Assembly: GCA_038213375.1 (NCBI GenBank)
Contig: JBBQTB010000013.1
Location: 19,963 to 83,962 of the forward strand
Source: Bacteroidales bacterium
GTDB taxonomy: Bacteria > Bacteroidota > Bacteroidia > Bacteroidales > JAAUTT01
DNA: 64,000 nt
Reading direction: 5' to 3'
Made by a program: the position numbers and the translations under genes. Below, one piece after another: positions 21,829 to 63,116 of the stretch. The notes beneath the pieces were generated by a model. The model did no database searches. It was not told where the DNA came from and was given only the letters and a program-made list of their open reading frames with translations. The number at the start of each line of letters is the position of its first letter. The stretch's first letter is position 1.

Positions 21829-21900
21829 GGTCCGTTCATCTAGGGGTTAGGATACAAGGTTTTCATCCTTGACACAGGGGTTCGATTCCCCTACGGACTA
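21829..21900 (+). tRNA. tRNA-Glu (anticodon UUC)
   Basis: The cloverleaf was folded by hand. Acceptor is GGTCCGT/ACGGACT (G1-U71 wobble) and D stem is ATCT/GGAT. The anticodon stem CAAGG/CCTTG carries loop TTTTCAT, and the T arm AGGGG-TTCGATT-CCCCT is followed by discriminator A. No CCA is encoded. Confidence 0.9.
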
Positions 21901-48469: not shown

Positions 48470-51400
48470 ATGGACAAAAGCATAAAGAAAGTAATTGTAC
48501 TTGGTTCGGGTGCGCTAAAAATCGGTGAAGCGGGTGAATTTGACTATTCGGGATCGCAAGCGCTCAAAGCATTGCATGAGGAAGGTGTGTATACCATCCT
48601 CATCAACCCAAACATTGCCACTGTTCAAACATCTGAAGGATTAGCCGATAAGATTTACTTTCTGCCAGTAACACCTTATTTTGTAGAAAAGGTTATTCAA
48701 AAAGAAAAACCGGACGGTATACTACTTGCTTTTGGTGGTCAGACAGCCCTAAATTGCGGCATTGCTCTGTTCAGAGACAATATTTTCGTAAAATACAATC
48801 TTCGTGTTCTTGGTACTCCTATTCAGTCCATAATGGACACTGAAGATCGTGAATTGTTTGTAAATAAACTCAACGAAATAGATGTAATAACCGCACGAAG
48901 CATTGCTGCATCGAACCTTGACGACACGCTTGCCGCAGCCGAAAAACTTGGTTTTCCATTGATCATCCGTGCAGCATATGCACTAGGCGGCCTTGGTTCA
49001 GGTTTTTGTTATAACATGGATCAGCTTAAAAAGCTAGCCAGCAAAGCTTTTGCGTATTCTCCTCAAGTGTTAGTTGAAGAATCCCTGAAAGGCTGGAAAG
49101 AAGTAGAATACGAAGTGGTGCGTGATAAATACGATAATTGCATCACAGTTTGTAACATGGAGAACTTTGATCCATTAGGAATCCATACCGGTGAAAGCAT
49201 CGTTGTAGCTCCTTCACAAACACTTACAAATGCTGAATATCATAAACTCCGGCAATTAGCCATTAAAATTATCCGCCATATCGGTATCGTTGGTGAATGC
49301 AATGTTCAGTATGCACTTGATCCAAATTCAGAAGACTATCGTGTAATTGAAGTAAATGCACGTTTGTCCCGGTCCTCAGCTCTGGCATCCAAAGCAACCG
49401 GTTATCCGTTGGCTTTTGTAGCTGCCAAACTGGCACTTGGATATGGTCTTCACGAGTTGAAGAATTCTATTACAAAAACTACTTCGGCTTTTTTCGAACC
49501 GGCGCTTGACTATATCGTTTGTAAAATCCCGCGGTGGGATATGAACAAATTCGTGGGAGTTTCCAAGCAAATCGGATCATCGATGAAGAGCGTGGGGGAA
49601 GTAATGTCCATCGGAAAAACATTTGAAGAGGCCATTCAAAAAGGCTTACGAATGATTGGTCAGGGAATGCACGGGTTTGTTGGAAATCGGGATATTGAAC
49701 TCGAAGATATTGAGAAAGAATTGTCGGAACCGACCGACATGCGAATTTTTGTTATCGCGAGTGCTTTTGAAAAAGGACTTACTGTAGATAAAATTCATCA
49801 GTTAACCAAAATCGACAAATGGTTTCTGATCAAACTCAGGAATATCTTCGACCTAAAAAATGATCTGGAAAAAAGCAATTCGCTTGATGAATTGCCCCTC
49901 GAATTACTGAAGGATGCCAAACGCTCGGGGTTTTCTGATTTCCAGGTGGCTCGTTTCGTTCTGAAGGGCGACAATGACCAGATGGAGGATTATATTCTAA
50001 ATGTTCGTAAATTTCGTAAATCTCATAATATTGTACCCAGTGTAAAACAGATTGATACCCTTGCAGCTGAGTACCCTGCCAAAACCAATTACCTGTATCT
50101 AACTTATCATGGTCAGGAACACGATGTACAATTTGAAAGGGACAATCAATCGGTAGTCGTTTTAGGTTCCGGAGCATATCGTATTGGAAGTTCTGTGGAA
50201 TTTGACTGGTGTGGTGTTAGTGCACTGAATACCATCAAAGAGCAGGGATTCCGATCGATCATGATCAATTACAATCCCGAAACAGTAAGTACCGATTACG
50301 ATGTTTGCGACCGTCTTTATTTCGATGAACTTTCACTGGAGCGAGTGCTGGACATAATGGATCTGGAAATCCCAAGAGGTGTAATTATATCCACCGGTGG
50401 ACAAATTCCAAACAACTTGGCTATCCGACTGCATAATCAGCAAATTCCGATTCTGGGTACATCTCCTCTTTCAATTGACAGAGCCGAAGATCGTCATAAA
50501 TTTTCGACCATGTGCGATAATCTGGATATCGATCAACCTCGTTGGAAAGAGCTTACAAGCATCGACGATATCTATGAATTTACCGAAATGGTTGGTTTTC
50601 CGGTTTTGATTCGCCCTTCATACGTTCTTTCAGGCGCTGCAATGAACGTAGTTTCGAACCGCGATGAATTGAAGTATTTTTTGGAGCTTGCGGCTAACGT
50701 ATCGAAGAAATATCCGGTTGTAGTTTCGGAATTCATTGTGAATTCAAAAGAAATTGAAATTGATGCTGTGGCCAGTAAAGGAGAAATAATGGCTTATGCT
50801 ATTTCTGAACATATAGAGTTTGCCGGAGTGCATAGTGGTGATGCCACCATGGTTTTTCCTCCTCAAAAAATTTACTTCGAAACAGTTCGCCGTATCAAAC
50901 GGATAGCCCGAAAAATTGCCAAAGAGCTTGATATTTCAGGACCATTTAACATTCAATATCTTGCCAAAGATAATGATATCAAAGTTATCGAATGTAACCT
51001 TCGCGCATCACGTTCCATGCCGTTCGTATCAAAAGTTCTTAAAGTAAACCTCATCGACTTGGCAACAAAAATTATGTTGGGTGTTGCGGTTGACAAAATC
51101 GATAAATCTATTTTCGATTTAGATTATATGGGCATCAAGGCACCTCAGTTTTCATTCCAGAGGTTGCTGAAAGCCGACCCAGTTTTGGGTGTGGAAATGG
51201 CCTCCACGGGCGAAGTAGGTTGCATTGGCGAGGATTATTACGAAACGTTGTTGAAATCAATGCTATCTGTAGGTTATACCATTCCAAAAAAGAACATATT
51301 ATTCTCCACTGGTCCTGCCCGTGATAAAGTTGAACTATTGAATAGTGCCAAATTACTGGTTGAGAAAGGTTACAATCTGTTTGCTACTAAAGGCTCGGCA

Positions 51401-51688
51401 GAATTTTTTCGAAAAAATGGTGTTGAAGTTACTGCGCTTCACTGGCCGGATGAAGACAAAGAGCCGAATACTCTTGATTATATTCGTGAAAAGAAGATTG
51501 ACCTGGTAATTAACATCCCAAAAGACCTGTCGAAAACTGAATTAAATAACGACTATACCATCCGCAGAAGTGCTGTTGACTATAATATTCCATTACTCAC
51601 CAATGCCCGTTTGGCTAGTGCATTTCTTACGGCCATATGCAAACGAAGTATGGATGATATTAAGATAAAAAGTTGGGATGAATATTAA
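48470..51688 (+). CDS. carB: carbamoyl-phosphate synthase large subunit
   Basis: 1072 aa with duplicated ATP-grasp halves. The start is [26 protein letters not shown] and an MGS-like C-terminus is present. Confidence 0.95.
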   Translation: [1072 protein letters not shown]

Positions 51689-51833: not shown

Positions 51834-52637
51834 TTATAATTTATAACCAGATACAGTAATGCTGAAAATGCCTCTTTTACCGTTTTTGAAACTTGTAATT
51901 TCATCTTTTGAAAGGTAATTTTCGAGTAATTCAAAAGGGATTTCTATTTCCTTTTGTTTGTGGACAATTACATTTTTAAAGCCTTGTTTATTAATAATTT
52001 CAAGGTATTCGTTTATATCGATAGCGCCCGACACACATCCCGCGTACATTTCAGCATCCTTGCGTAATTTATCAGGTAAATTGCCCTTTATAACAACATC
52101 AGAAACACAGAAATGCCCATTGGACTTTAAAACCCTCATAATTTGGGCAAAGGCTTTATTTTTATCCGGCACTAAATTTAAAACACAATTTGACACCACA
52201 ACATCAAAGCTTTTATCTGGCAAAGGCATTTCTTCAATGTCGCCTTTTACAAATTCTACGTTTTTAAAACCAAGTTTTCTGCTGTTTTCATTAGCTTTAG
52301 CAAGCATAGCAACGGTAAAGTCCAAACCAGTAACTTTGCCTGTTTCACCAACAATGGCATGGGCAACAAAGCAATCGTTACCTGCACCGCTGCCCAAATC
52401 AAGCACATGGTCGCCTTTATTTATTCCGGCAAACTGTGTTGGGATGCCACAACCTAATCCTAAATCGGCATCGGGGTTGTAACCTTCGAGCTTTTCATAA
52501 TTTTCGCTGAATATTGTATAATCAACCGTTGAGCAATTTATAGTTCCACAACATGACGATTCGTTTTGCTGTTTCGATTGACTGGCAATTTCACCATATT
52601 TTTCTTTCACAATCAATTTCAAATCCTCTGCTTCCAT
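51834..52637 (-). CDS. arsM: arsenite S-adenosylmethionine methyltransferase
   Basis: The start was taken at MEAEDLK. It has N-terminal Cys pairs (SSCCG) and SAM motif I (VLDLGSGAGND). It is within the ars operon. Confidence 0.8.
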   Translation of the reverse strand: MEAEDLKLIVKEKYGEIASQSKQQNESSCCGTINCSTVDYTIFSENYEKLEGYNPDADLGLGCGIPTQFAGINKGDHVLDLGSGAGNDCFVAHAIVGETGKVTGLDFTVAMLAKANENSRKLGFKNVEFVKGDIEEMPLPDKSFDVVVSNCVLNLVPDKNKAFAQIMRVLKSNGHFCVSDVVIKGNLPDKLRKDAEMYAGCVSGAIDINEYLEIINKQGFKNVIVHKQKEIEIPFELLENYLSKDEITSFKNGKRGIFSITVSGYKL

Positions 52638-52641
52638 AATA

Positions 52642-53067
52642 TTAATGTTTAATTGACAAATAAAATTCATAAAACTTCGTATTTATCTCGTCCCTGACTT
52701 TTCGAAATTCGCTCAGGATAAACTCATCGGTGCCTCTGGCACGCGAAGGATCTTCAAATCCAATGTGCAAGCGGTGGTTCACCTTTCCATAAAAAGCAGG
52801 ACAAGTTTCGTTGGCATTATCGCATACAGTTATTATATAGTCCCATTGATTCTTCAAATATTGGTCAACCATTTCTGGAGTATGGTGGCTGATGTCAATA
52901 CCAATATCCTTCATTACTTTAACAGCTATTGGATTTACCTGTTTTGCAGGTTCTGTTCCACCCGAATGAACTTCAATTTTTTTATCAAAAGATTGTAAAA
53001 AGCCATGTGCCATTTGGCTTCGGCAACTGTTGCCCGTACAAAGAATTAATACTTTCAGTTTATCCAT
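52642..53067 (-). CDS. arsC: arsenate reductase, LMW-PTPase type
   Basis: 141 aa with the P-loop LCTGNSCRSQMA. Confidence 0.85.
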   Translation of the reverse strand: MDKLKVLILCTGNSCRSQMAHGFLQSFDKKIEVHSGGTEPAKQVNPIAVKVMKDIGIDISHHTPEMVDQYLKNQWDYIITVCDNANETCPAFYGKVNHRLHIGFEDPSRARGTDEFILSEFRKVRDEINTKFYEFYLSIKH

Positions 53068-53076
53068 AGCAAAATC

Positions 53077-53415
53077 CTATTTACAGTTTACTTCACAATT
53101 AATGTCCATCGTTTTCATATCTTTAAAAAAGTCATCAAACATTTCTTTGTATTTTAAAATTGTAGAATGACATAGACAATAATTAATTTTAAGCCCATCG
53201 ATCTCTCCGTGAATTAACCCAAACTCTTTAAGTTCTTTTAAATGTTGAGAAACAGTGCTGCGACTCAATGGCAAATAATCGGAAATATCGCCTGAAATAC
53301 AAGTTTTTGTTTCGGCCAGGTATTCCAAAATTGATAGCCTTGCAGGATGAGAAAGAACTTTCGTAAATTTTGCCAGTTCTTGTAGTTCTTTCGTAAATGA
53401 TTCAGTTTTTATCAT
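53077..53415 (-). CDS. arsR: ArsR/SmtB family transcriptional repressor
   Basis: 112 aa with the wHTH segments LSHPARLSILEYL and ISDYLPLSRSTVSQHLKELK. Confidence 0.85.
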   Translation of the reverse strand: MIKTESFTKELQELAKFTKVLSHPARLSILEYLAETKTCISGDISDYLPLSRSTVSQHLKELKEFGLIHGEIDGLKINYCLCHSTILKYKEMFDDFFKDMKTMDINCEVNCK

Positions 53416-53430
53416 AATTTTATGATTAAG

Positions 53431-53446
53431 GTCGTAAAATTACGAC
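53431..53446. promoter_or_regulatory. perfect 16-nt palindrome upstream of arsR (candidate ArsR operator)
   Basis: GTCGTAA-AA-TTACGAC lies 16-31 nt upstream of the arsR start codon. Confidence 0.4.
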
Positions 53447-53690
53447 ATATATTTATAAAATACTATTAATAATGCCAAAATTTATTGGTTACTAATTTTG
53501 GTTCTGCGAATGCCATTGCTTTATAAAGAACTATCTAATCACCATATAAGCAAGCTTTACGCCAAAAGCAGCACCAAAATCTGTGACTACACGAACCAAA
53601 AAGGCATCTACTTTTTGAGGCCATTGCCAAAGAGTTAGATTAATGATTTTGTGAAGTAAACTCTGTTTTGGCATTTCCATTTATTTTCTA

Positions 53691-53707
53691 TGCGTAATTT
53701 TTACGCA
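53691..53707. promoter_or_regulatory. candidate NrtR operator 1
   Basis: Perfect palindrome TGCGTAA-TTT-TTACGCA, 61 nt upstream of the nrtR ATG. Confidence 0.5.
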
Positions 53708-53741
53708 ATAAAATTTGCAAATGAAATATTCATTATTATCT

Positions 53742-53760
53742 TTGCGTAACAATTACGCAA
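53742..53760. promoter_or_regulatory. candidate NrtR operator 2, overlapping a TAnnTTTG -7 box
   Basis: Perfect palindrome TTGCGTAA-CAA-TTACGCAA, 8 nt upstream of the nrtR ATG. The box TATCTTTG at 53737-53744 overlaps its left arm. Confidence 0.5.
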
Positions 53761-53767
53761 AGATATT

Positions 53768-54466
53768 ATGGAAACCAATAATTACTGTTACGAATATCCC
53801 CGACCATCCTTTACAACCGATTGTGTCATCTTCGGTTTCGATGCAGGTGAACTAAAACTTCTTCTTATTGAAAGAGGAATAGAACCTTTCAAAGGAAAAT
53901 GGGCCTTTCCGGGAGGTTTTTTGAATATGGATGAAAATTCCGATGAATGTGCTCGTAGGGAACTATTCGAGGAAACTGGAATAGAGAATGTCTTTATTGA
54001 GCAACTCTATACCTTTAGTGATGTAAACCGAGATCCAAGGGGAAGAGTTATCACTGTGGCATATTATGCACTCGTCAAGTTGTCCGATTTTAAAATTCAA
54101 GCTGGCGACGATGCCCAAAGTGCAAAATGGTTTCCAATCTCACAAATCCCTTCGCTAGCTTTTGACCACAACCTCATCTTGCGAATAGCATTAAACAGGG
54201 TTCGCGCCAAAATTCGCTATCAACCCATTGGTTTTGAATTACTCTCTGAGAAATTTACGTTGCCTGAACTTCAGAATCTCTACGAAACAATACTTGAAAA
54301 GCAACTCGACCGGAGAAATTTCAGAAAAAAAATTCTTGAAACCCAACTACTTATCGACCATCAGGAATCAGTAAAGGGAGTTCCTCACAAAGGTGCCAAA
54401 TATTTCAGTTTCGACAAGAATAAATATAAAGCATTATCGGAAAGAGGTTTCAATTTCGAAATATAA
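53768..54466 (+). CDS. nrtR: NrtR-type Nudix-related transcriptional regulator of NAD metabolism
   Basis: 232 aa. The N-terminal Nudix box is GGFLNMDENSDECARRELFEETGI. The C-terminal winged-helix segment is LPELQNLYETILEKQLDRRNFRKKIL. It heads a pncB-pncA-nadE operon. Confidence 0.8.
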   Translation: METNNYCYEYPRPSFTTDCVIFGFDAGELKLLLIERGIEPFKGKWAFPGGFLNMDENSDECARRELFEETGIENVFIEQLYTFSDVNRDPRGRVITVAYYALVKLSDFKIQAGDDAQSAKWFPISQIPSLAFDHNLILRIALNRVRAKIRYQPIGFELLSEKFTLPELQNLYETILEKQLDRRNFRKKILETQLLIDHQESVKGVPHKGAKYFSFDKNKYKALSERGFNFEI

Positions 54467-54496
54467 AGCAATGATTTAACTTTAAAAATAGAAAAA

Positions 54497-55651
54497 ATGA
54501 TTATTCGCGATTTTACCGACAACGATCTTTACAAGTTCACTACCATGAACGCTATTCAGAAAAAATTTCCTACGGCAGAAGTACTTTACAAGTTCATCAA
54601 CCGCGGAAAAACTGAGTTCCCTGTTGGTTTTGCAGAGGCCTTGCGTAACGAAGTAAATGCCATGCAAAATCTATGTCTTAGCAACGAAGCCGAAAAGTTT
54701 ATTCGAGATAGATGTTACTATTTCGAACCCGTATTTATTGATCTCTTAAAGGGTTACCGGTATAATCCGGAAGAAGTTCGAATTACCCAAACCGGCGGAA
54801 CACTTGAGGTAGATATTGTGGGGTTATGGTATCGCACCGTTCTTTGGGAAGTTCCACTCATGGCAATCATTTCTGAGCTTTATTTTACAATGACCAATCA
54901 AAAAGCCGACGATTACGAACCAAGGGCTATTGCAAAAGCAAAAGGATTTGCTGCTATTGGCGCAGAACTTTCAGAATTTGGAACACGTCGCCGTTTCTCC
55001 TTCGAAGTACAAAACCGTGTGGTGGAAATTTTGAAAGAACATGCTAGTAAATGTCTCAACGGAACCAGCAATGTTTATTTGGCAATGAAAAATAACCTTA
55101 CTCCTATGGGAACGCACCCTCACGAGTGGTTTATGTATCATGGCGCACATTATGGTTACCGCATGGCCAATGCCATTGGTCTTGAAAACTGGGTAGACGT
55201 TTATCAGGGAAGTCTGGGGATTGCATTAACCGACACATTTACAACTGACAATTTCTTTCACAGTTTCAATTCGAAATATGCAAAACTTTTCGACGGTGTG
55301 CGCTGGGATAGTGGTGACCCGCTTGAGTTTACCGACAAAACATTAAAACATTATGCAGCATGTAGGATAGACCCAAAAAGTAAAACCATTGTATACAGTG
55401 ACGCCCTGGATCTTGAAAAAGTGAAAGAAATAAAAAAATTTGTTAAAGGAAGAATTCACGATGTATATGGAATTGGAACATACCTCAGCAACGATGTGGG
55501 CGTTAAACCAATGAACATGGTTATCAAGCTTTTCGCAGCTAAGCCTTATGGCTACGATAATTTTTTCCAAACCGTGAAGCTCTCGGATGTAGACGGAAAG
55601 CATACAGGTGGACAGGATGAAATAGATATTTGTTTAAAAACGATAAGATAA
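54497..55651 (+). CDS. pncB: nicotinate phosphoribosyltransferase
   Basis: 384 aa with the N-terminal TDNDLYKFTTMNA and a typical PncB layout. Confidence 0.85.
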   Translation: MIIRDFTDNDLYKFTTMNAIQKKFPTAEVLYKFINRGKTEFPVGFAEALRNEVNAMQNLCLSNEAEKFIRDRCYYFEPVFIDLLKGYRYNPEEVRITQTGGTLEVDIVGLWYRTVLWEVPLMAIISELYFTMTNQKADDYEPRAIAKAKGFAAIGAELSEFGTRRRFSFEVQNRVVEILKEHASKCLNGTSNVYLAMKNNLTPMGTHPHEWFMYHGAHYGYRMANAIGLENWVDVYQGSLGIALTDTFTTDNFFHSFNSKYAKLFDGVRWDSGDPLEFTDKTLKHYAACRIDPKSKTIVYSDALDLEKVKEIKKFVKGRIHDVYGIGTYLSNDVGVKPMNMVIKLFAAKPYGYDNFFQTVKLSDVDGKHTGGQDEIDICLKTIR

Positions 55652-55677
55652 ACATTAATTCTTAATACCTCAACCAA

Positions 55678-56466
55678 ATGAACAATCAAAATGCAATTTT
55701 AATCATTGACGGTCAGTTCGATTTTTGTAATCCACAAGGTGCACTATTTGTAGCTGGTGCAGATGCAGATATGAAACGGTTATCTAATTGGATTAAATCC
55801 AATAAAAGCCAGATCGACCATATCTCAGTTACAATGGATAGCCATCCGGTGAATGATATTTCTCATCCCTCGTTCTGGCAAGATAAAAATGGAAAATTTC
55901 CAAATCCGTTTACTGCCATTTCTTCCCAAGAGATAAAAGATGGAAAATGGAGTCCACGGTTTTTCCCAAAGGAAGCTATCAATTATGTTGAAGCTTTAGA
56001 AAAACAAGGCGAATTTGGACATTTTATCTGGCCTTACCATTGTTTAATAGGTTCCAGAGGGGCTGCTTTGGACGATAACATCATGGAAGCCCTAATTGAA
56101 TGGACAAAGGATGGTAAGTTCTATCAGGTTGTGGCTAAAGGCACTTATCCACTTACCGAGCATTTCGGGATATTCAGGGCAAATGTCCCTGCGGCAAACA
56201 GACCTGAAACACAGCTTAATCAAGCATTGATCGATACCTTGGAAAAGTACCAGAATGTTTATCTGGTGGGCGAAGCAAAATCGCATTGTGTGGCCAATAG
56301 TCTAAAACAGGCTATGGAAGAAGCGCCTAACCTCGCTGGTAAGTTTGTAATTCTTGAAGATTGTATGTCAGATGTTACAGGTCTTAGCCATTTAGGAACA
56401 CCAATATATGCCCAAGCAAAAACGATGGGGATTAGATTCGCTAAATCTGTAGATATCACTCTTTAA
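55678..56466 (+). CDS. pncA: nicotinamidase (isochorismatase/cysteine hydrolase family)
   Basis: 262 aa with catalytic elements IDGQFDF (Asp) and GEAKSHCV (Cys). The NAD salvage context supports the call. Confidence 0.7.
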   Translation: MNNQNAILIIDGQFDFCNPQGALFVAGADADMKRLSNWIKSNKSQIDHISVTMDSHPVNDISHPSFWQDKNGKFPNPFTAISSQEIKDGKWSPRFFPKEAINYVEALEKQGEFGHFIWPYHCLIGSRGAALDDNIMEALIEWTKDGKFYQVVAKGTYPLTEHFGIFRANVPAANRPETQLNQALIDTLEKYQNVYLVGEAKSHCVANSLKQAMEEAPNLAGKFVILEDCMSDVTGLSHLGTPIYAQAKTMGIRFAKSVDITL

Positions 56467-56502
56467 GATTATTGAATTACAAATTATTAACCTAATAAAA
56501 TA

Positions 56503-57192
56503 ATGATTATGGACAATTTTAATCTTCCCGATTTTAATATAGATTTTGGAAACTTCGATCCACAGGAAATATCTTCTGACGAAACCATAAATGCTGTTTT
56601 GATTGTTGACGTATCACCTTCTGTTGATAGTTATGTTAATGATCTTAACAAAGCATTTAAAGAGTTTCTTGAAGAAATGCAAAGAAGCCATGTGGCAGAA
56701 AAACTAATGGTTTCCATTATTGAATTCAACGATACCATAAACGTGCGTACGGGGTTTCAACCTGTTAATTCCATTGATTTAGACAAGATATCATTCCAAC
56801 CATGTGGCAGCGGTACTGCATTGTACGATGCTGTTTTATCGGGGATTACCAATGCTGTTAATTACAGAACAAACCTTGAAAATTCGGGTGTAAACTGCCA
56901 GACCCTTATTTTTATAATTACCGATGGAGAAGACAACTCATCGCAAAATAGCGCAGGCAAAGTTAAAAGTGTATTATATAATATTGTGAAAGAGGAGAAA
57001 AACTCATTTAACTTTGAAACCATACTTTTTGGTGTTGGCAATGATGCTAATTTTGAAAATGCCCAAAAAGAAATGGGTATTAAACATTTAGCAAAAATTG
57101 GCAATTCCTCAAAAGAAATACGAAAAATGATAGGGTTTATTTCAGCATCTATTTCAAAAAGCTCCGGAGGTAATACTCAAGTAGTGTTTTAA
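56503..57192 (+). CDS. TerY-like von Willebrand factor A domain protein
   Basis: 229 aa. The MIDAS motif is DVSPS (D at 56608-56610), plus GTALYDAV and FIITDGEDN. Confidence 0.8.
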   Translation: MIMDNFNLPDFNIDFGNFDPQEISSDETINAVLIVDVSPSVDSYVNDLNKAFKEFLEEMQRSHVAEKLMVSIIEFNDTINVRTGFQPVNSIDLDKISFQPCGSGTALYDAVLSGITNAVNYRTNLENSGVNCQTLIFIITDGEDNSSQNSAGKVKSVLYNIVKEEKNSFNFETILFGVGNDANFENAQKEMGIKHLAKIGNSSKEIRKMIGFISASISKSSGGNTQVVF

Positions 57193-57208
57193 TTAATTTA
57201 TTTTATAT

Positions 57209-57931
57209 ATGATACATATTTCAACAGTTTCGAGACGAGGTTCGTCGCATCCCGATTGGAACGAGGACAACTTTTATTTCAAACTAACCGACAATTCAAT
57301 TATTGGAGGTGTATTTGATGGGTGCAGCTCCGCAAAGGATTCCTACTTTGCCTCGAAACTGTTTGCTAATATGTATAAAAAAACGATTTTTGATTTAAAT
57401 GAAGCAGACATAAACATAAAGAATTTTTCCTCTATTATAAATGTCTTTTTCAAAAATCTGAATGGAATAATAAAAACCATTGGCCTTGCCACTGACGAGA
57501 CGTTATCAACTGCTGTTCTTTTTGTTTATGAATTAAACAGCAATAACTTATTAGTTAAGTTTTTTGGTGATGGGGTAGCCTATGCAAACAATCAATACCT
57601 CGAAATTTTTAATAACGATGAAGAAAACAAACCTGATTATCTTGGATATTCTCTTGATGAAATCCTGACAGGCAAAAATTTCAGAACCTATTGGGATATG
57701 AAAAAATCGTTTGCCGCTAATACAAAAGACTTCAGCGTTTCGTCCGATGGGATATTTTCGTTTAAGAAAACAAACGAAAATGAACCCGACTTTTTATGTG
57801 AAAGCTATTTGGTACAAGATAATTTTTTATATAAAAACCCGGCATCCCTTAAAAGAAAGCTGAATATTTTAAGGAACAAAGGATATGAACATTACGATGA
57901 CGTCACAATAATTAGAGTCAAAACAGAGTAA
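57209..57931 (+). CDS. PP2C-family Ser/Thr protein phosphatase
   Basis: 240 aa with GGVFDGCSS, FFGDGVAY and the C-terminal YDDVTIIRV typical of PP2C metal-binding motifs. Confidence 0.7.
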   Translation: MIHISTVSRRGSSHPDWNEDNFYFKLTDNSIIGGVFDGCSSAKDSYFASKLFANMYKKTIFDLNEADINIKNFSSIINVFFKNLNGIIKTIGLATDETLSTAVLFVYELNSNNLLVKFFGDGVAYANNQYLEIFNNDEENKPDYLGYSLDEILTGKNFRTYWDMKKSFAANTKDFSVSSDGIFSFKKTNENEPDFLCESYLVQDNFLYKNPASLKRKLNILRNKGYEHYDDVTIIRVKTE

Positions 57932-57935
57932 TATT

Positions 57936-59600
57936 ATGAATAAAATAAAACTTTACGATTCCGGAGGTTCAACCAAGTTTGAGGTTGATATTTCAAAGGA
58001 AATTGATCGTGGAGGGGAAGGTTCTATCTTTCCACACCCTAATGATAAAAACCAGGTAATTAAGATATATCACGAAGGCATTGTCCATAACCTAACACAG
58101 CAAACCTGGATTTATCTTAGTCAGCTTGATAAAAGATTTGTTAAACCGTTGGAATTATTTTATAATGATACCGAAGCAATTATTGGTTTTAGCATGAATC
58201 TGTTGGATAACTCCTATTACAGGATTTCGCAAATTTTTACTAAGTCGCAATGTGCCAAATTGGGAATTAACGAAATAATAAAGAATAAAATTTCAAATGA
58301 ACTCATTTCTATAATAAAAGAAGCTCATAGCAAAAACATTGTGATTGGAGATTTTAATCCTTATAATATTTTTATTAACCCTCATGGAGATATACAAATT
58401 TTAGATGTTGATAGTTTTGAAACCCCAGCCTTAAAGCATTCAGGCCGTTTGCTTGACGATATTAGGGATCATTATTATTTGGGAAAGGTAAGCCGCCAAA
58501 GCGATTATTATGCTCTGGCAGTAAATGTTTTCAGGCTTTTAACGTATGTGCATCCTTACAAAGGAGTTCATAATATATGGAAACAGCTTGAAGAAAGAGC
58601 AATAAAAAGAATATCCGTACTTAGCAACGATACCGATTTAATAATTCCTGCATTTTACGAACCCATTGGTAGTAAAGCATTAGAAATGCAATTTAAACGG
58701 ATATTTGAAGATGGCGAAAGGTTTTTAATTCAGGTGGACCAAATAATCACAATCAAGAAACCACAAACTGTTATTCAAACCAACCGCACGAATATTATGG
58801 TGAAAGTAATTTCAGATAACGTAATTGATTTCTATTTCAATGAAACATTGGGGTATATAAAAACTGATACCATTTCTGAATTGTACGATTGCACTTTCAA
58901 AGGTAATCTGAGTTTAACCGGAAAAATAAACAATACAGACTATGATTCTCTATGGGTTGGAAATAAAAATATACTTCGGGTGAATGATAATCAACTTTAT
59001 TATCATCATGACCTTATAATCAACTTCAAAATACCTGAAAATTTCCGTGTTATTCAATTAGATCATATTCTGTTTGGTGTTGACTGGGAAAATATCTACC
59101 ATATTTATCCTGATAAAATAATTAATAAAACTATTTCATGGAGCAAGATACCTTCCTGGGGACGTGGGTTTAAATTTGAATTTAGCCCAATACAACTAAC
59201 TGGAGGAATTGCCCGAACACATTTTAGATATGGAGATGCCATAAACTCGGTGAAATTACCATTGAATGCTAAAAACCTGAATTTGAAAGGAAATACTGGT
59301 GTAATTACCTATTTCGAAGATGAAAAAATTAAACATAATTGGTTTTGCATAAATGGATTAAACCTTGTGATGTGCAAAGAAACCGAAGAAATATTTAGCT
59401 TTGCTGTTAAACAAACAACAGGAACTGCATTTGTTTTTGTTCCCAAGGATGGAAAAATTGAAATATTGCGAACACCTGATTTTAGCGAAGTGGATTCAAT
59501 TGAATTTGATGTATGCACTGCGCAGTCGCAAATTTTCTTAACCCGATCCGGTTTATTGCTTTTGGAGAATAAAATATTGTATTTAATTAATAGAAATTAA
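57936..59600 (+). CDS. Ser/Thr protein kinase-like protein with ~300-aa uncharacterised C-terminal domain
   Basis: 554 aa. The Gly loop is RGGEGSIF and the Lys is in VIKIY. The catalytic loop is IGDFNPYN (D at 58350-58352) and the DFG-equivalent is LDVDSF. Confidence 0.75.
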   Translation: MNKIKLYDSGGSTKFEVDISKEIDRGGEGSIFPHPNDKNQVIKIYHEGIVHNLTQQTWIYLSQLDKRFVKPLELFYNDTEAIIGFSMNLLDNSYYRISQIFTKSQCAKLGINEIIKNKISNELISIIKEAHSKNIVIGDFNPYNIFINPHGDIQILDVDSFETPALKHSGRLLDDIRDHYYLGKVSRQSDYYALAVNVFRLLTYVHPYKGVHNIWKQLEERAIKRISVLSNDTDLIIPAFYEPIGSKALEMQFKRIFEDGERFLIQVDQIITIKKPQTVIQTNRTNIMVKVISDNVIDFYFNETLGYIKTDTISELYDCTFKGNLSLTGKINNTDYDSLWVGNKNILRVNDNQLYYHHDLIINFKIPENFRVIQLDHILFGVDWENIYHIYPDKIINKTISWSKIPSWGRGFKFEFSPIQLTGGIARTHFRYGDAINSVKLPLNAKNLNLKGNTGVITYFEDEKIKHNWFCINGLNLVMCKETEEIFSFAVKQTTGTAFVFVPKDGKIEILRTPDFSEVDSIEFDVCTAQSQIFLTRSGLLLLENKILYLINRN

Positions 59601-59605
59601 TTTCC

Positions 59606-61489
59606 ATGATGTCTTCCACTAATTCTGTAAAAATAGCTGTTGCTCAATTAGAAGTTATTGCCGGACATCCGGATATAAATGCAAAAAAGGTTCTTCGGGA
59701 AATTGAAAATGCAAAAGATGCCGGAGACGATATCATCGTTTTCCCTGAAATGTCTGTTCCCGGTTATTTGCTTGGTGATGAGTGGGAAAACACCGCATTT
59801 GTAAATGATTGTTATTCATATAACGATGAAATAAAAAATGCAACTGATAACATTGTGGCTATCTGGGGAAATGTTGATTTGGATGAAACTATGAAAAATG
59901 AAGATGGCAGGATTAGAAAATACAACGCAGCCTTTGTTGCCCAAAACAAAAATTATCAAGGGGCTGGTCGTGTTCATAAAACTTTAATGCCAAAATATCG
60001 TGAATTTGACGATGAACGGCATTTTTATTCAGCCAGAAAAGAAGCTCAAGACAGGTATTTACATATTGAGGAAGTATTTGATCCTTTTGATGTTACTATA
60101 AAAGAAACAAGCCACAAACTTGGAGTTATCCTATGTGAGGACATGTGGAGTGACGATTACACCATAAACCCCATTAATATTCTTTTGAGAAAGGAGGCCG
60201 GATTAATTGTAAACCTTTCATGCTCTCCCTGGACTTGGCGAAAGAATAATAAACGGCATTCTGTAGTGCGAAACAGGATTCAAAACCAACCAGTTTATTT
60301 TATCTATGCCAATAATATCGGGATTCAAAATAATGGTAAAAACATTTTTCTTTTCGATGGCAATTCTACCATTTATAATCCTGATGGCTCACTCCAAAAA
60401 GTAGCAAAAGATTATACTGAAGAAACAATCAGGGCAACCATATTTGGTGAAAAAATAGAGATAATGCCCAATCCCGATGTAAGTGACGAAAGGGATAAGG
60501 AAGAACTGTATAAAGGTCTCGTGTACGGGATTAGGAAATTTTTTGACATTTTTCCAAACCGTCGTGTTGTATTAGGACTAAGTGGTGGAATAGATTCAGC
60601 TTTGAGCGCAGTGTTACTTGCCGAGGCGTTAGGTTCTGAGAATGTTTACGCCATTAATATGCCCTCTCAGTTTAATTCCGAAACTACCAAAAGCGCTGCA
60701 AAAATTCTGGCACAAAATCTTGGCATTCATTACACCACTATACCCATTCAGGCTTCATATGAGAATACAATCATGGATTTGGAATCAGCCATATTTACCC
60801 GATTAGATGGTTCGAATGCAACCACAGAGTTAAAACTTTCAGGTATTAATAAAGAAAATATCCAGGCGAGAGATCGGGGCTCCCGCCTGCTAGCAGGAGT
60901 AGCTTCCATTTTAGGGGCTGTATTTGTAAACAATGGCAATAAAACCGAAACTGCTTTTGGCTATGCGACTCTGTATGGAGATGTGAATGGGGCTCTTGCT
61001 CCCATTGCCGACCTATATAAAATGGAGGTTTATGAATTGGCTGCATTTATAAACAGTAAAAAAAATGTTATACCGGCCACCATCTTTAATATTCCGGCTT
61101 CAGCCGAATTGAGCGCCGATCAGAATATAAACGAAGGAAAAGGTGACCCCATTTATTATCCATACCATGACAAATTGGTGCGTGCATTTGTCGAGTTCCG
61201 CCTCGACCCGGAAGATATCCTTCGCTATTACACCGAAGGTACATTGGGGCAAGTTCTACATTGCGACCAAGCAATTATTGACAATTATTTTAAAGATAAC
61301 GCATCCTTTATCGCCGACCTAGAACACAAGTGGAAACTCTACAAACTTAATTACTTCAAACGTATCCAGGCACCTCCGATTATTGCAGTTAGCAAACGTG
61401 CTTTTGGCTTCGATTTACGCGAATCGCAAAACGGGGTGTATTTTACCAGGGGATATCTACAATTGAAAAACAAAATCTTGCACAAATAA
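59606..61489 (+). CDS. nadE: glutamine-dependent NAD+ synthetase (nitrilase + synthetase domains)
   Basis: 627 aa. The CN-hydrolase triad context is FPEMSVPGY and LCEDMW. The PP-loop is GLSGGIDSA. Confidence 0.9.
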   Translation: MMSSTNSVKIAVAQLEVIAGHPDINAKKVLREIENAKDAGDDIIVFPEMSVPGYLLGDEWENTAFVNDCYSYNDEIKNATDNIVAIWGNVDLDETMKNEDGRIRKYNAAFVAQNKNYQGAGRVHKTLMPKYREFDDERHFYSARKEAQDRYLHIEEVFDPFDVTIKETSHKLGVILCEDMWSDDYTINPINILLRKEAGLIVNLSCSPWTWRKNNKRHSVVRNRIQNQPVYFIYANNIGIQNNGKNIFLFDGNSTIYNPDGSLQKVAKDYTEETIRATIFGEKIEIMPNPDVSDERDKEELYKGLVYGIRKFFDIFPNRRVVLGLSGGIDSALSAVLLAEALGSENVYAINMPSQFNSETTKSAAKILAQNLGIHYTTIPIQASYENTIMDLESAIFTRLDGSNATTELKLSGINKENIQARDRGSRLLAGVASILGAVFVNNGNKTETAFGYATLYGDVNGALAPIADLYKMEVYELAAFINSKKNVIPATIFNIPASAELSADQNINEGKGDPIYYPYHDKLVRAFVEFRLDPEDILRYYTEGTLGQVLHCDQAIIDNYFKDNASFIADLEHKWKLYKLNYFKRIQAPPIIAVSKRAFGFDLRESQNGVYFTRGYLQLKNKILHK

Positions 61490-61796
61490 CTAACAAATGC
61501 TGCCCGCCAAAAACGGGGCAATGCTCCTTACCTCGAATTTGGGTAACGTAAGCCTTTGGGAACTTGATTGTGAGTTGGTTACATATATTTTTGAAATCAC
61601 AGAATCGTGTATCCGTTTTTTCAGCGATAAATTGATACGTGATACCTCCTTTAAACAACCTTAAAAAGTAATGTAAAAAATTACCTGATACCACTTTTAT
61701 TCATTTGTTTGATGTGATAGAAATATCATTTTTCTGTGACTTTTCTGTGACAACTTTAAAAGACCTTTGATGGTACAAACCATTAAATGTAAAATT

Positions 61797-63116
61797 ATGA
61801 ATACAAAAATTATTTTTAGTTCATTGTTGTCATCAAGCCTGATATTGTTTACCCAGTGCGATAAACTGGAGGAGCTAGGTGAAGGGGGTTTTGGAAAGGC
61901 AACTTCAGAAAAATTCAAAATTACCATCGAAAACGTACAAGCCCCAAAGAAGTATTTTGCTTCGGGAATTTTTAACACCCCGATCGGTGCTTCCAAAGCA
62001 GGCCCGGCCACACCAGGGAATAGTTTTGAATTTTCATTTAACGCCGGAAAAGGCCATAAGCTTTCTTTCGTAACCATGTTTGGCCGCTCTAACGACCTGT
62101 TCTTTGCCCCTGATGGTAAAGGTATCGAACTTTACAACGGCGATACACCTCTAAGTGGCGAAATCACGTCGATGATCAAACTTTGGGATTCCGGGACTGA
62201 AGTAAACGAAGCCCCCGGTATGGGAATGTACCAGGCAAATACGCAATCTGCCCCCGACATGGGTCCGGATGAGAGCATTCCTGTTATGGAAATCAGTAAG
62301 GTTAACGATGGCTTTACTTACCCATCGGTGGCAAGCATCATTAAAGTTTCTATATCAAATGATGGAGGCACCATGTTCACAGTTCGGATAGATGATCTTA
62401 CAGGTGCTTTTACCCCAGTTTCTCCTGGTGTTTGGTTAATACACACCTCTGACAATCCCATTTTTGAACCTGGTCAATTGGATCGTGGTTTAGGTCTGAA
62501 GAACATTGCCGAAGATGCCAACCCAACAGCCCTTGGAAAATACTTGGCTGACAATAGTGGCCTGGTGACACCAATTTCCCCAGGGGTTTGGACAATCACG
62601 AAAAAGGGTATGCACCCTATATTTCAAAATAACCAGTTGGATTACGCGGAAGGCCTTAAATTCATTGCCCAAGGTGGCGATCCCACAACACTTGCAGCCT
62701 CTTTAAAAACAAAAAGCGGAATAATTTCAACTGGTGTTTTTAACATGCCGAAAGGAGCTTCTTCCCCTGGGCCATTAATGCCTGGTGAAAAATATGAATT
62801 TACAGTGAAGGCTTCAAAAGGGGATTATTTAAGCTTTGCCAGTATGTTTGGACAATCAAATGATTTGTTCTTTGCACCTTCGGATATGGGCATTCCTCTA
62901 TGGATTGACAAACTTCCGACTTTTGGGGACGTGAGCTCACAAATTTCCGTCTGGGACGATGGAACCGAAGTGGATGAATATCCGGGAGCCGGAAACCATC
63001 AACCTGCACGTGGGCCTGGCGGCATTGTCGAAAGCAAGAACATTGTGGTCGTGAATGATGGGTTTATGTACCCCACCACCAAAAGTTTGATCAAAGTAAC
63101 AGTTACTCCACTTTAA
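61797..63116 (+). CDS. lipoprotein with repeated spondin_N-like modules
   Basis: The start was taken at MNTKIIF with lipobox LFTQC. The segments LSFVTMFGRSNDLFFAP and LSFASMFGQSNDLFFAP are repeated. A tandem pair reads TP[VI]SPGVW.I...PIF..QLD..GLK.IA. Confidence 0.65.
   Translation: MNTKIIFSSLLSSSLILFTQCDKLEELGEGGFGKATSEKFKITIENVQAPKKYFASGIFNTPIGASKAGPATPGNSFEFSFNAGKGHKLSFVTMFGRSNDLFFAPDGKGIELYNGDTPLSGEITSMIKLWDSGTEVNEAPGMGMYQANTQSAPDMGPDESIPVMEISKVNDGFTYPSVASIIKVSISNDGGTMFTVRIDDLTGAFTPVSPGVWLIHTSDNPIFEPGQLDRGLGLKNIAEDANPTALGKYLADNSGLVTPISPGVWTITKKGMHPIFQNNQLDYAEGLKFIAQGGDPTTLAASLKTKSGIISTGVFNMPKGASSPGPLMPGEKYEFTVKASKGDYLSFASMFGQSNDLFFAPSDMGIPLWIDKLPTFGDVSSQISVWDDGTEVDEYPGAGNHQPARGPGGIVESKNIVVVNDGFMYPTTKSLIKVTVTPL

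Follow-up and report, generated by a model that had tools for sequence, protein, structure and literature searches.

A nicotinamidase, a vWA protein, a PP2C phosphatase, and a kinase with a predicted β-propeller form a recurrent four-gene cassette in large phages and bacteria, here within an NrtR-type NAD salvage operon of a Bacteroidales bacterium

We analyzed computationally a stretch of 64,000 nucleotides (nt) from a Bacteroidales bacterium (contig JBBQTB010000013.1 of assembly GCA_038213375.1), hereafter the window, in which seven tightly packed plus-strand genes encode, in this order, the regulator NrtR, the nicotinate phosphoribosyltransferase PncB, a PncA-like nicotinamidase, a protein with a von Willebrand factor A (vWA) domain, a PP2C-type phosphatase, a Ser/Thr kinase, and the NAD synthetase NadE (Table 1; coordinates are positions within the window, and other loci are cited by L numbers). 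An earlier note on this sequence had singled out the three genes wedged between pncA and nadE, taken them for a TerY-P-type signaling triad inserted into an NAD salvage operon, and reported gaps of 36, 16, 4, and 5 nt between successive genes from pncA to nadE, which came out identical when we re-measured them. The observation is confirmed and its interpretation partly supported, in that the recurring unit proved to comprise four genes, with the nicotinamidase as a member.

The association is not specific to this strain. Loci were collected by a kinase search of genomes and viral contigs, and their neighboring genes were labeled with iterated hidden Markov models, which gave 51 loci (50 plus the window). 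All four genes are present in 40 of these, and the 11 incomplete loci are contigs that end early, four kinase-only loci, or distant classic triads. The full cassette occurs in every one of the 25 IMG/VR viral contigs (30 to 500 kb) and also in LR756500.1, a 462-kb uncultured huge phage, and it is no less frequent in large phages than in bacteria, with the majority of copies on phage contigs. When sampling was based on the nicotinamidase, a vWA gene was found immediately 3′ in 31 of 52 informative metagenome loci, and among the wide-flank loci of this sample (n = 26), 14 had all four genes, 1 had the pair only, and 11 were without a vWA gene. The complete cassettes, of which there are 52, each lie on one strand and follow the order pncA-vWA-PP2C-kinase (41 cassettes) or PP2C-kinase-pncA-vWA (11 cassettes). 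Both orders keep pncA→vWA and PP2C→kinase adjacent: a median of 23 nt separates the nicotinamidase gene from the vWA gene, which always follows it directly, and the phosphatase and kinase genes usually overlap. The loci span 24 to 71% GC, and when the pairwise distance matrices are compared between the four proteins, the correlations have r values of 0.71 to 0.82. Because 52 complete cassettes recur in unrelated contexts, the arrangement is far beyond chance. Moreover, since vWA still directly follows pncA where phages and bacteria have no pncB, nadE, or nrtR nearby, pncA is part of the module, and the unit is one of four genes, not three. The suggested tie between the triad and NAD salvage thus stands, but as a link specifically to the nicotinamidase rather than to the salvage operon at large.

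The nicotinamidase is a long form that carries an insertion of ∼45 residues compared to classic PncA, and it scores under every curated cut-off (17.3 versus 27 bits for Pfam Isochorismatase and 45.4 versus 174 bits for NCBIfam PRK11609). Its catalytic Asp-Lys-Cys triad (D11, K154, and C204) is invariant in 16 diverse relatives, bacterial and phage copies included, as are the metal ligands D54, H56, and H121, the last within a WPxHC motif, with H63 nearly so. Over the signature motifs it aligns with Mycobacterium tuberculosis PncA (3pl1) and with yeast Pnc1 (2h0r), the closest solved structure by sequence. Judged from these features, pncA probably encodes a true, though divergent, nicotinamidase. 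At loci that lack the triad (L054, L056, L075, L079, L080, L085, L096, L110, and L134), long-form pncA adjoins pncB, nadE, or nrtR, which argues that nicotinate is the product of the enzyme. Only one residue stood out as specific to vWA-linked nicotinamidases, namely, Ser55 (55840-55842), which lies between the ligands D54 and H56 and is a serine in 76 of 80 vWA-linked enzymes, compared to 4 of 22 vWA-less ones, where this position is variable (N, T, S, or A). It is possible that Ser55 is a regulatory phosphosite or a mere clade marker; we treat it as a lead and not as evidence, since the vWA-linked and vWA-less groups are phylogenetically confounded.

The vWA protein is the element common to nicotinamidase-vWA pairs and to vWA-PP2C-kinase triads. 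Pairs without kinase and PP2C genes are found in L051 to L053, L109, and L137, from lineages that comprise Sphingobacteriales, Microscillaceae, and the cultured Eisenibacter elegans (L137), and triads without pncA are found in L019 to L021 and in Escherichia coli (yegL-pphC-yegI). As a single sequence, the vWA protein scores 20.8 bits with Pfam VWA_2, under the cut-off of 27, and its profile matches E. coli YegL with a probability of 99.5% (hhalign; E value of 6e-23 over 193 columns, tail included). All five residues of its metal ion-dependent adhesion site (MIDAS; D36, S38, S40, T105, and D141) are invariant in 17 relatives, in agreement with the intact MIDAS noted earlier for this 229-residue TerY-like protein. 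In the C-terminal tail, the S214-x-S216 motif is invariant, including in the classic triads L020 and L021, and is aligned in YegL as well; every pncA-linked copy of the protein ends in Phe. At two pair-only loci, L137 (Eisenibacter elegans GCA_000430505.1, 5195-11593) and L053 (12-6592), the pair adjoins TPR-SpoIIE PPM phosphatases and, in L137, also a 479-residue Hanks kinase, which hints that non-orthologous kinase and phosphatase partners may serve the nicotinamidase-vWA pair at such loci.

The identification of the other two proteins held up as well. The phosphatase scores 26.9 bits with Pfam PP2C_2, just over the cut-off of 24; its motifs D20, D37-G38, D121-G122, D180-G181, and D230-D231 are invariant in 43 relatives, and its profile matches RsbX and SpoIIE among solved structures. 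The kinase, as a single sequence, stays under the cut-off of Pfam Pkinase (21.4 versus 31.7 bits); its residues G26 to G29, K43, D139, N144, and D157/D159 are invariant in 18 relatives, and by BLASTP it shares 22% identity with YegI over residues 4 to 211 (E value of 6e-5), in an alignment that spans the GGEG...KIYH and HPY.G motifs. The full-length AlphaFold2 (AF2) model (mean pLDDT of 89) has an N-terminal protein kinase fold, a disordered linker at residues 272 to 283, and an all-beta C-terminal half. Given that a Foldseek search with this model returned kinase domains only (PDK1, PKA, and IRAK4), the C-terminal domain was modeled alone, which gave 27 strands with a pLDDT of 92 and a pTM of 0.87 and Foldseek matches to YncE, PROPPIN/Hsv2, and WD40 propellers at TM scores of about 0.5. 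The large extra domain that the earlier note had seen on the kinase is thereby modeled as a seven-bladed β-propeller. This propeller is rare and specific to the kinase family, since its profile finds only 159 clusters in 1.84 billion representative proteins and, in full-length matches, always at the C terminus of proteins of ∼520 to 600 residues. With the nicotinamidase triad and ligands, the MIDAS, the PP2C aspartates, and the catalytic residues of the kinase all conserved, all four cassette proteins look active.

How might these proteins work together? The long-form nicotinamidase would be the enzyme of the cassette and would convert nicotinamide, its presumed substrate, to nicotinate and NH3. 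The vWA protein would be the hub that docks it, most simply through the MIDAS metal contacting an acidic residue of the enzyme, and this presumed contact would be switched by phosphorylation of the Ser-rich C-terminal tail, the likely phospho-acceptor. The kinase would write the mark on the tail when its propeller senses a signal, presumably a protein or a small ligand, and the PP2C phosphatase would erase it. In this way, the first reaction of Preiss-Handler NAD recycling would be gated post-translationally, by activation or by inhibition, and with it the free nicotinamide of the cell. Where the cassette sits in the Bacteroidales operon, presumably read from one promoter with two NrtR operators that flank and overlap it, transcription would track the ADP-ribose/NAD status while the activity of the enzyme would track a second signal. 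The placement of the vWA protein at the center rests on its being shared by pairs and triads and on the invariance of S214 and S216 in its tail. That the vWA protein is a nicotinamidase adaptor, switched by the kinase and the phosphatase so as to gate nicotinamide deamidation, is a proposal that we consider about evenly poised between right and wrong.

Several observations weigh against this proposal. About 40% of the long-form nicotinamidases have no vWA partner, which must therefore be dispensable for catalysis, and no pncA-vWA fusion was found among the 120 best relatives of the vWA protein or among the 120 best of the nicotinamidase. The kinase might phosphorylate the nicotinamidase itself, at Ser55, or might target unrelated host or phage proteins, and it stands alone in four bacterial loci from metagenome-assembled genomes (MAGs), L006, L008, L012, and L014, where no PP2C, vWA, or nicotinamidase gene lies within the sequence examined (10 kb on each side for L006, L012, and L014; ∼6 kb upstream and 1.8 kb downstream for L008). 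A weak −33/−7 promoter match inside the operon, at 57048 in the 3′ end of the vWA gene, could drive a separate PP2C-kinase transcript. Finally, what advantage gating would offer a lytic phage over a constitutive nicotinamidase is not evident. As to the kinase-only loci themselves (kinase at ∼10001-11690 in L006, L012, and L014 and at 6240-7940 in L008), their neighbors are housekeeping genes, such as those for RecR, ExoVII, ribosomal protein L19, and a TetR regulator; a SIR2-family gene lies two genes 5′ of the L006 kinase, as a single occurrence.

vWA proteins also act as partners in chelatases and MoxR systems, and the vWA protein of the cassette could be a chaperone that loads the enzyme with metal or assists its assembly, or the enzyme could act on an amide other than free nicotinamide, such as nicotinamide mononucleotide (NMN) or nicotinamide riboside; in both cases, something else would be regulated by the kinase and phosphatase. 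The weak NCBIfam matches of the vWA protein are indeed to chelatase subunits (BchD/ChlD and CobT-like), the enzyme needs a metal in its active site (D54, H56, and H121), its insertion and its scores set it apart from curated nicotinamidases, and the pair-only loci imply that the vWA function does not strictly depend on the cassette kinase. However, an AAA+/MoxR partner is present in no locus, many long-form enzymes do without a vWA partner, the adjacency of pncB in many loci argues for nicotinate as the product, and the phospho-tail motif of the vWA protein is conserved along with the kinase and the phosphatase. We consider a chaperone role or a different substrate improbable.

Among described systems, the closest are the TerY-P triad and its E. 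coli counterpart. The TerY-P triad consists of a TerY-like vWA protein, a PP2C phosphatase, and a Ser/Thr kinase (Anantharaman, Iyer & Aravind 2012, as cited in PMC11090510), and the cassette resembles it in that one operon encodes all three kinds of protein: a vWA protein with a full MIDAS and a serine-rich tail, an adjacent PP2C-type phosphatase, and an adjacent YegI-type Hanks kinase, which would form a metal- and phosphorylation-dependent switch tied to a variable effector. It differs in several respects. The kinase of the classic TerY-P triad is fused to a zinc ribbon and that of the version reported as anti-phage by Gao et al. 2020 to an OB fold (PMC11090510), whereas the cassette kinase ends in the predicted β-propeller; and the effector associated with the cassette is a nicotinamidase, which is not mentioned with TerY-P in the literature searched. 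The predominance of phage-borne copies is a further difference. In PADLOC-DB v2, the vWA protein had no match even at an E value of 10 (which TerY-P models this library includes was not inspected), the phosphatase had nothing significant (a generic PP2C model at an E value of 0.013 and PDC-M21C at 0.026), and the kinase had generic matches only (PD-T4-6, MkoA, and Stk2, at E values of 4e-7 and weaker). With its propeller fusion and without recognition of its vWA and PP2C proteins by PADLOC, the cassette appears to be a relative of the TerY-P triad that lies outside the tested defense variant, so that membership of the anti-phage TerY-P system is not supported.

The classification as a known kind of vWA-PP2C-kinase triad does hold, given the homology to the E. 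coli triad yegL-pphC(yegK)-yegI, which encodes a vWA protein, a PP2C phosphatase, and a Hanks-type kinase (bioRxiv 10.1101/819920 and 10.1101/303594). The gene triad is the same, the vWA protein matches YegL, and the N-terminal 211 residues of the kinase align to YegI. In contrast, YegI is a 648-residue membrane protein whose C-terminal half is unlike that of the cassette kinase, and there is no nicotinamidase near the E. coli triad. The cassette phosphatase was considered as a relative of PphC and rejected, as neither BLASTP nor profile comparison detected any similarity between them. We found no phage or bacterial nicotinamidase described as linked to a vWA/PP2C/kinase module in a literature search that did not cover the founding TerY-P paper, and the Aravind-lab surveys of viral NAD/ADP-ribose systems and of jumbo phages mention neither PncA/isochorismatase nor PP2C/TerY triads.

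The abundance of the cassette in phages raises a further explanation, in which the wiring is the same and its role lies in phage-host warfare rather than in housekeeping homeostasis. Neither the IMG/VR contigs nor LR756500.1, all with the full cassette, have a pncB, an nrtR, or a strong nadE match within 10 kb of it (a weak match to a NadE model lies ∼3 kb upstream in LR756500.1), and several loci lie in phage-like surroundings, with strings of short unannotated same-strand genes and genes for Thg1, RNA ligase, single-stranded DNA-binding protein (SSB), ClpP, and exonuclease. A phage could use the cassette for counter-defense, turning the nicotinamide released by NADases (TIR, SIR2, or SEFIR) into nicotinate from which host PncB, NadD, and NadE would rebuild NAD, as a Preiss-Handler analogue of the known phage NAD reconstitution pathways NARP1 (Adps and Namat), NARP2 (Nampt and Nmnat), and NARP3 (PnuC and a NadR-like protein). 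Alternatively, removal of nicotinamide could starve NARP1 or NARP2 of a competitor or relieve product inhibition of NAD-consuming enzymes. NARP1 to NARP3 are likewise phage-borne sets that act on NAD breakdown products or precursors, with nicotinamide as a substrate of NARP1 and NARP2 too, and they establish that phages do reconstitute NAD; they differ in using neither nicotinamidase nor nicotinate and in carrying no kinase/phosphatase/vWA module, and none of the four cassette proteins matched a NARP-type enzyme family. A role in conflict is also in line with the patchy presence of the triad among close bacterial relatives (the window's clade versus L054 and L056), with its low GC content, with the recognition of TerY-P-like triads as a defense component (PMC11090510), and with NrtR, through which ADP-ribose would induce the bacterial copy and so link it to the action of NADases (PMC2330246). 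On the other hand, defense and anti-defense models have no significant match to the vWA protein or the phosphatase, the bacterial copies lie in ordinary chromosomal settings (beside rpsB/tsf in L138 and near carB here) and, in the window, in a housekeeping salvage operon rather than a defense island, and a lone phage nicotinamidase would rely wholly on host PncB, NadD, and NadE. We regard a role in conflict as rather unlikely, though worth keeping in sight.

In yeast, the level of the nicotinamidase Pnc1 sets free nicotinamide and thereby relieves the inhibition of the sirtuin Sir2. The likeness to the cassette is one of analogy only, from control of free nicotinamide to the activity of NAD-consuming enzymes, since Pnc1-Sir2 is eukaryotic, regulated transcriptionally, and without a vWA or kinase partner. 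Combining these strands, we tentatively speculate that the cassette is a hitherto undescribed gated nicotinamidase system, carried mainly by phages, in which the propeller kinase would sense an infection or NAD cue and the vWA adaptor would switch the enzyme and so set the fate of NADase-released nicotinamide, with the Bacteroidota copy domesticated under NrtR; we think this possible but would not count on it. If true, phages would gain a fourth, Preiss-Handler-type route to restore NAD or a means to starve rivals of nicotinamide, and for the first time a molecular target could be named for a TerY-P-type triad. Much of the conflict between phages and bacteria turns on NAD and its degradation products, with NADase effectors pitted against NARP1 to NARP3, and a regulated nicotinamidase in huge phages and under NrtR in Bacteroidota points to nicotinamide as a controlled metabolite in this conflict. 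vWA/PP2C/kinase triads are widespread and one variant is anti-phage, yet the target and mechanism are known for none; a triad joined to one enzyme with a simple, assayable reaction offers a tractable entry to the mechanism of the switch.

Two further observations concern the phage-like loci. L017, binned into a Mycoplasmatota MAG, has Thg1, RNA ligase, and SSB among its genes, and it shares gene families with the IMG/VR contigs, as does L018, binned into a Saprospiraceae MAG; both contigs may stem from phages or prophages and have entered these MAGs through faulty binning. A small cytidylyltransferase-like gene lies near the cassette in six loci (Table 1), two of which have it immediately 3′ of the kinase gene. 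We considered it as an NMN/nicotinate mononucleotide adenylyltransferase and rejected this, because its nearest NCBIfam models are RfaE domain II and generic nucleotidyltransferases, so that no link to NAD can be claimed for it.

In Bacteroidales, the cassette lies 3′ of nrtR in every locus with sufficient upstream sequence. It is accompanied by both pncB and nadE in the window, L003, L055, and L139 (on a 6.7-Mb contig), by pncB only in L004, L005, and L010, and by neither in L007, L015, L016, and L138. Cassettes linked to NAD genes (pncB, nrtR, or nadE) recur at 35% GC (L055) and, in lineages unrelated to these, at 47 to 49% (L120/L121) and 66% GC (L131). Some loci hold additional genes: a NADAR-domain gene between pncB and pncA in L003 (2303-3247) and a Nudix gene of ∼275 codons after the kinase or nadE in L005 (11670-12503), L010 (9005-9832), and L055 (9313-10143).

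Three lines of evidence suggest that the vWA-PP2C-kinase block probably landed between a resident pncA and nadE in the lineage of the window. The relatives L054 and L056 have nrtR-pncB-pncA-nadE with nothing between pncA and nadE; the triad genes are GC poor (32 to 34%, versus 39 to 40% for nrtR, pncB, pncA, and nadE and a mean of 38.1% with a standard deviation of 2.5% for the other open reading frames of the window); and in a neighbor-joining tree of 121 nicotinamidases, a rough one without support values, L054 and L056 are sister to the window's clade, and together they nest among chromosomal vWA-less or pair-only Bacteroidota nicotinamidases, apart from the phage clades. The insertion proposed in the earlier note is thus borne out in part: the triad does look inserted, but pncA belongs to the unit and is no mere neighbor. 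Elsewhere, too, the triad accompanies this enzyme family, and its arrival precisely beside a resident member speaks for selection of the adjacency rather than for chance. A comparison of identities with all other groups named no donor for the window's clade, as its kinase (30 to 36%), vWA protein (37 to 60%), and PP2C (28 to 36%) are about equally distant from all of them.

The same insertion could be read as the arrival of an independent TerY-P-like defense or stress triad that merely landed in an NAD operon and has no tie to the nicotinamidase. The triad-less operons of close relatives, the compositional step at both borders of the triad, and the existence of classic triads without pncA would all fit such an event. 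It would leave unexplained, however, the adjacency in 52 complete cassettes across the whole GC range and in two gene orders that both keep pncA→vWA, the pncA-vWA pairs that persist without a kinase, the covariation of the four proteins, and the near confinement of the propeller-kinase family to the cassette, with the four kinase-only loci as exceptions. We therefore hold a chance arrival to be very unlikely.

NrtR is an ADP-ribose-responsive repressor of Preiss-Handler salvage operons (Rodionov et al. 2008, PMC2330246), and the operon of the window shares with these a Nudix-winged helix repressor, palindromic operators at the promoter, pncB, pncA, and nadE as regulated genes, and triad-less versions in the related Bacteroidales L054 and L056. 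It differs in that Bacteroidetes NrtR regulons were listed in that study as concerned with pentose utilization only and NAD salvage in other phyla, and in that no signaling genes were described inside any NrtR regulon, whereas the window's operon has three. Bacteroidales thus appear to employ NrtR for genuine NAD salvage operons too. The NrtR of the window carries Nudix and C-terminal winged-helix domains and scores 173 bits with NCBIfam NF050029, short of the equivalog cut-off. As read in its translation, residues ∼49 to 72 retain the full Nudix hydrolase signature (G-x5-E-x7-REUxEExGU), and since this signature is complete, NrtR here may hydrolyze ADP-ribose besides sensing it.

Two exact GCGTAA-N3-TTACGC palindromes lie 5′ of nrtR (Table 1), and none lies within the operon. 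They bracket a −33 TTTG element and overlap a −7 TAnnTTTG element, which together form the sole intergenic −33/−7 pair in 53400-61800 and would work as the promoter; because the proximal palindrome abuts the −7 element, repression would act by occlusion. We aligned by eye the regions 5′ of nrtR of 11 related loci, with and without the triad, and found the two-operator layout in most of them, triad-less ones included. The TTTG and TAnnTTTG elements are kept, an equivalent of the distal box (TRYGTAA-N3/4-TACRYA) lies at the matching position in most of the 11 loci, and a clear distal box was not evident in L055. A search for the exact box (GCGTAA-N3-TTACGC, at most one mismatch) across 16 related loci gave two matches only, the boxes of relatives being degenerate, of the form TRYGTAA...TACRYA. 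Given the short gaps between the genes, the lack of plus-strand terminator-like sites within the operon in a terminator scan, and the lack of another intergenic promoter match, co-transcription of the operon under NrtR is plausible.

Table 1. Genes and sequence elements discussed in the text (positions within the 64,000-nt window, except for the last row, which gives positions within other loci)
Feature	Position	Strand	Basis or remarks
arsR-like gene	53077-53415	-	divergent from the NAD operon
carB	48470-51688		
distal NrtR operator candidate, palindrome GCGTAATTTTTACGC	53692..53706	.	exact GCGTAA-N3-TTACGC
Bacteroidetes-type promoter candidate	53714..53744	+	-33 TTTG at 53714-53717; -7 TATCTTTG at 53737-53744
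proximal NrtR operator candidate GCGTAACAATTACGC	53744..53758	.	exact GCGTAA-N3-TTACGC; abuts the -7 element
nrtR	53768-54466	+	Pfam NUDIX 5.7e-21, NrtR_WHD 3.9e-23
pncB, nicotinate phosphoribosyltransferase	54497-55651	+	TIGR01514 406 bits (cut-off 269); Pfam NAPRTase
long-form nicotinamidase (PncA-like), 262 aa	55678-56466	+	first of the four cassette genes
YegL/TerY-type vWA protein, 229 aa	56503-57192	+	complete MIDAS, Ser-rich C-terminal tail
PPM/PP2C phosphatase, 240 aa	57209-57931	+	Pfam PP2C_2; metal-binding Asp residues
Ser/Thr kinase, 554 aa, whole gene	57936-59600	+	
kinase domain, residues 1 to ∼270	57936-58745	+	catalytic residues, AF2 and Foldseek, YegI similarity
predicted seven-bladed β-propeller, kinase residues ∼284-554 plus stop codon	58785-59600	+	AF2 and Foldseek
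nadE, glutamine-dependent NAD synthetase, 627 aa, last operon gene	59606-61489	+	Pfam CN_hydrolase and NAD_synthase; NF010588 362 bits (under cut-off 479); TIGR00552 120.5 bits (over cut-off 63.65)
cytidylyltransferase-like gene, six other loci	L018:11572-11991, L045:11575-12000, L024:49-552, L040:8274-8744, L041:7603-8127, L050:3232-3732		

Directly 5′ of the NAD operon, on the minus strand, lies an arsenic-type cluster (51834-53415), recognized by reading the translations and composed of an ArsR-like helix-turn-helix protein of 112 residues, an ArsC/low-molecular-weight phosphatase-like protein of 141 residues, and a protein of 278 residues that resembles S-adenosylmethionine-dependent methyltransferases. 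The palindrome GTCGTAAAATTACGAC (53431-53446), ∼16 nt upstream of the divergent arsR-like gene, was flagged by the terminator scan as well, and its CGTAA...TTACG core is akin to the NrtR boxes 250 bp away; it could be an ArsR operator, a terminator, or a third NrtR-like site. On the other side of the operon, 277 nt 3′ of nadE, a gene at 61767-63116 encodes a 449-residue protein that has no Pfam match and three stretches of which match a spondin domain (NCBIfam NF038123, E value of 1e-65). The sole Rfam match at the gathering threshold in the 64 kb is a tRNA gene at 21829-21900.

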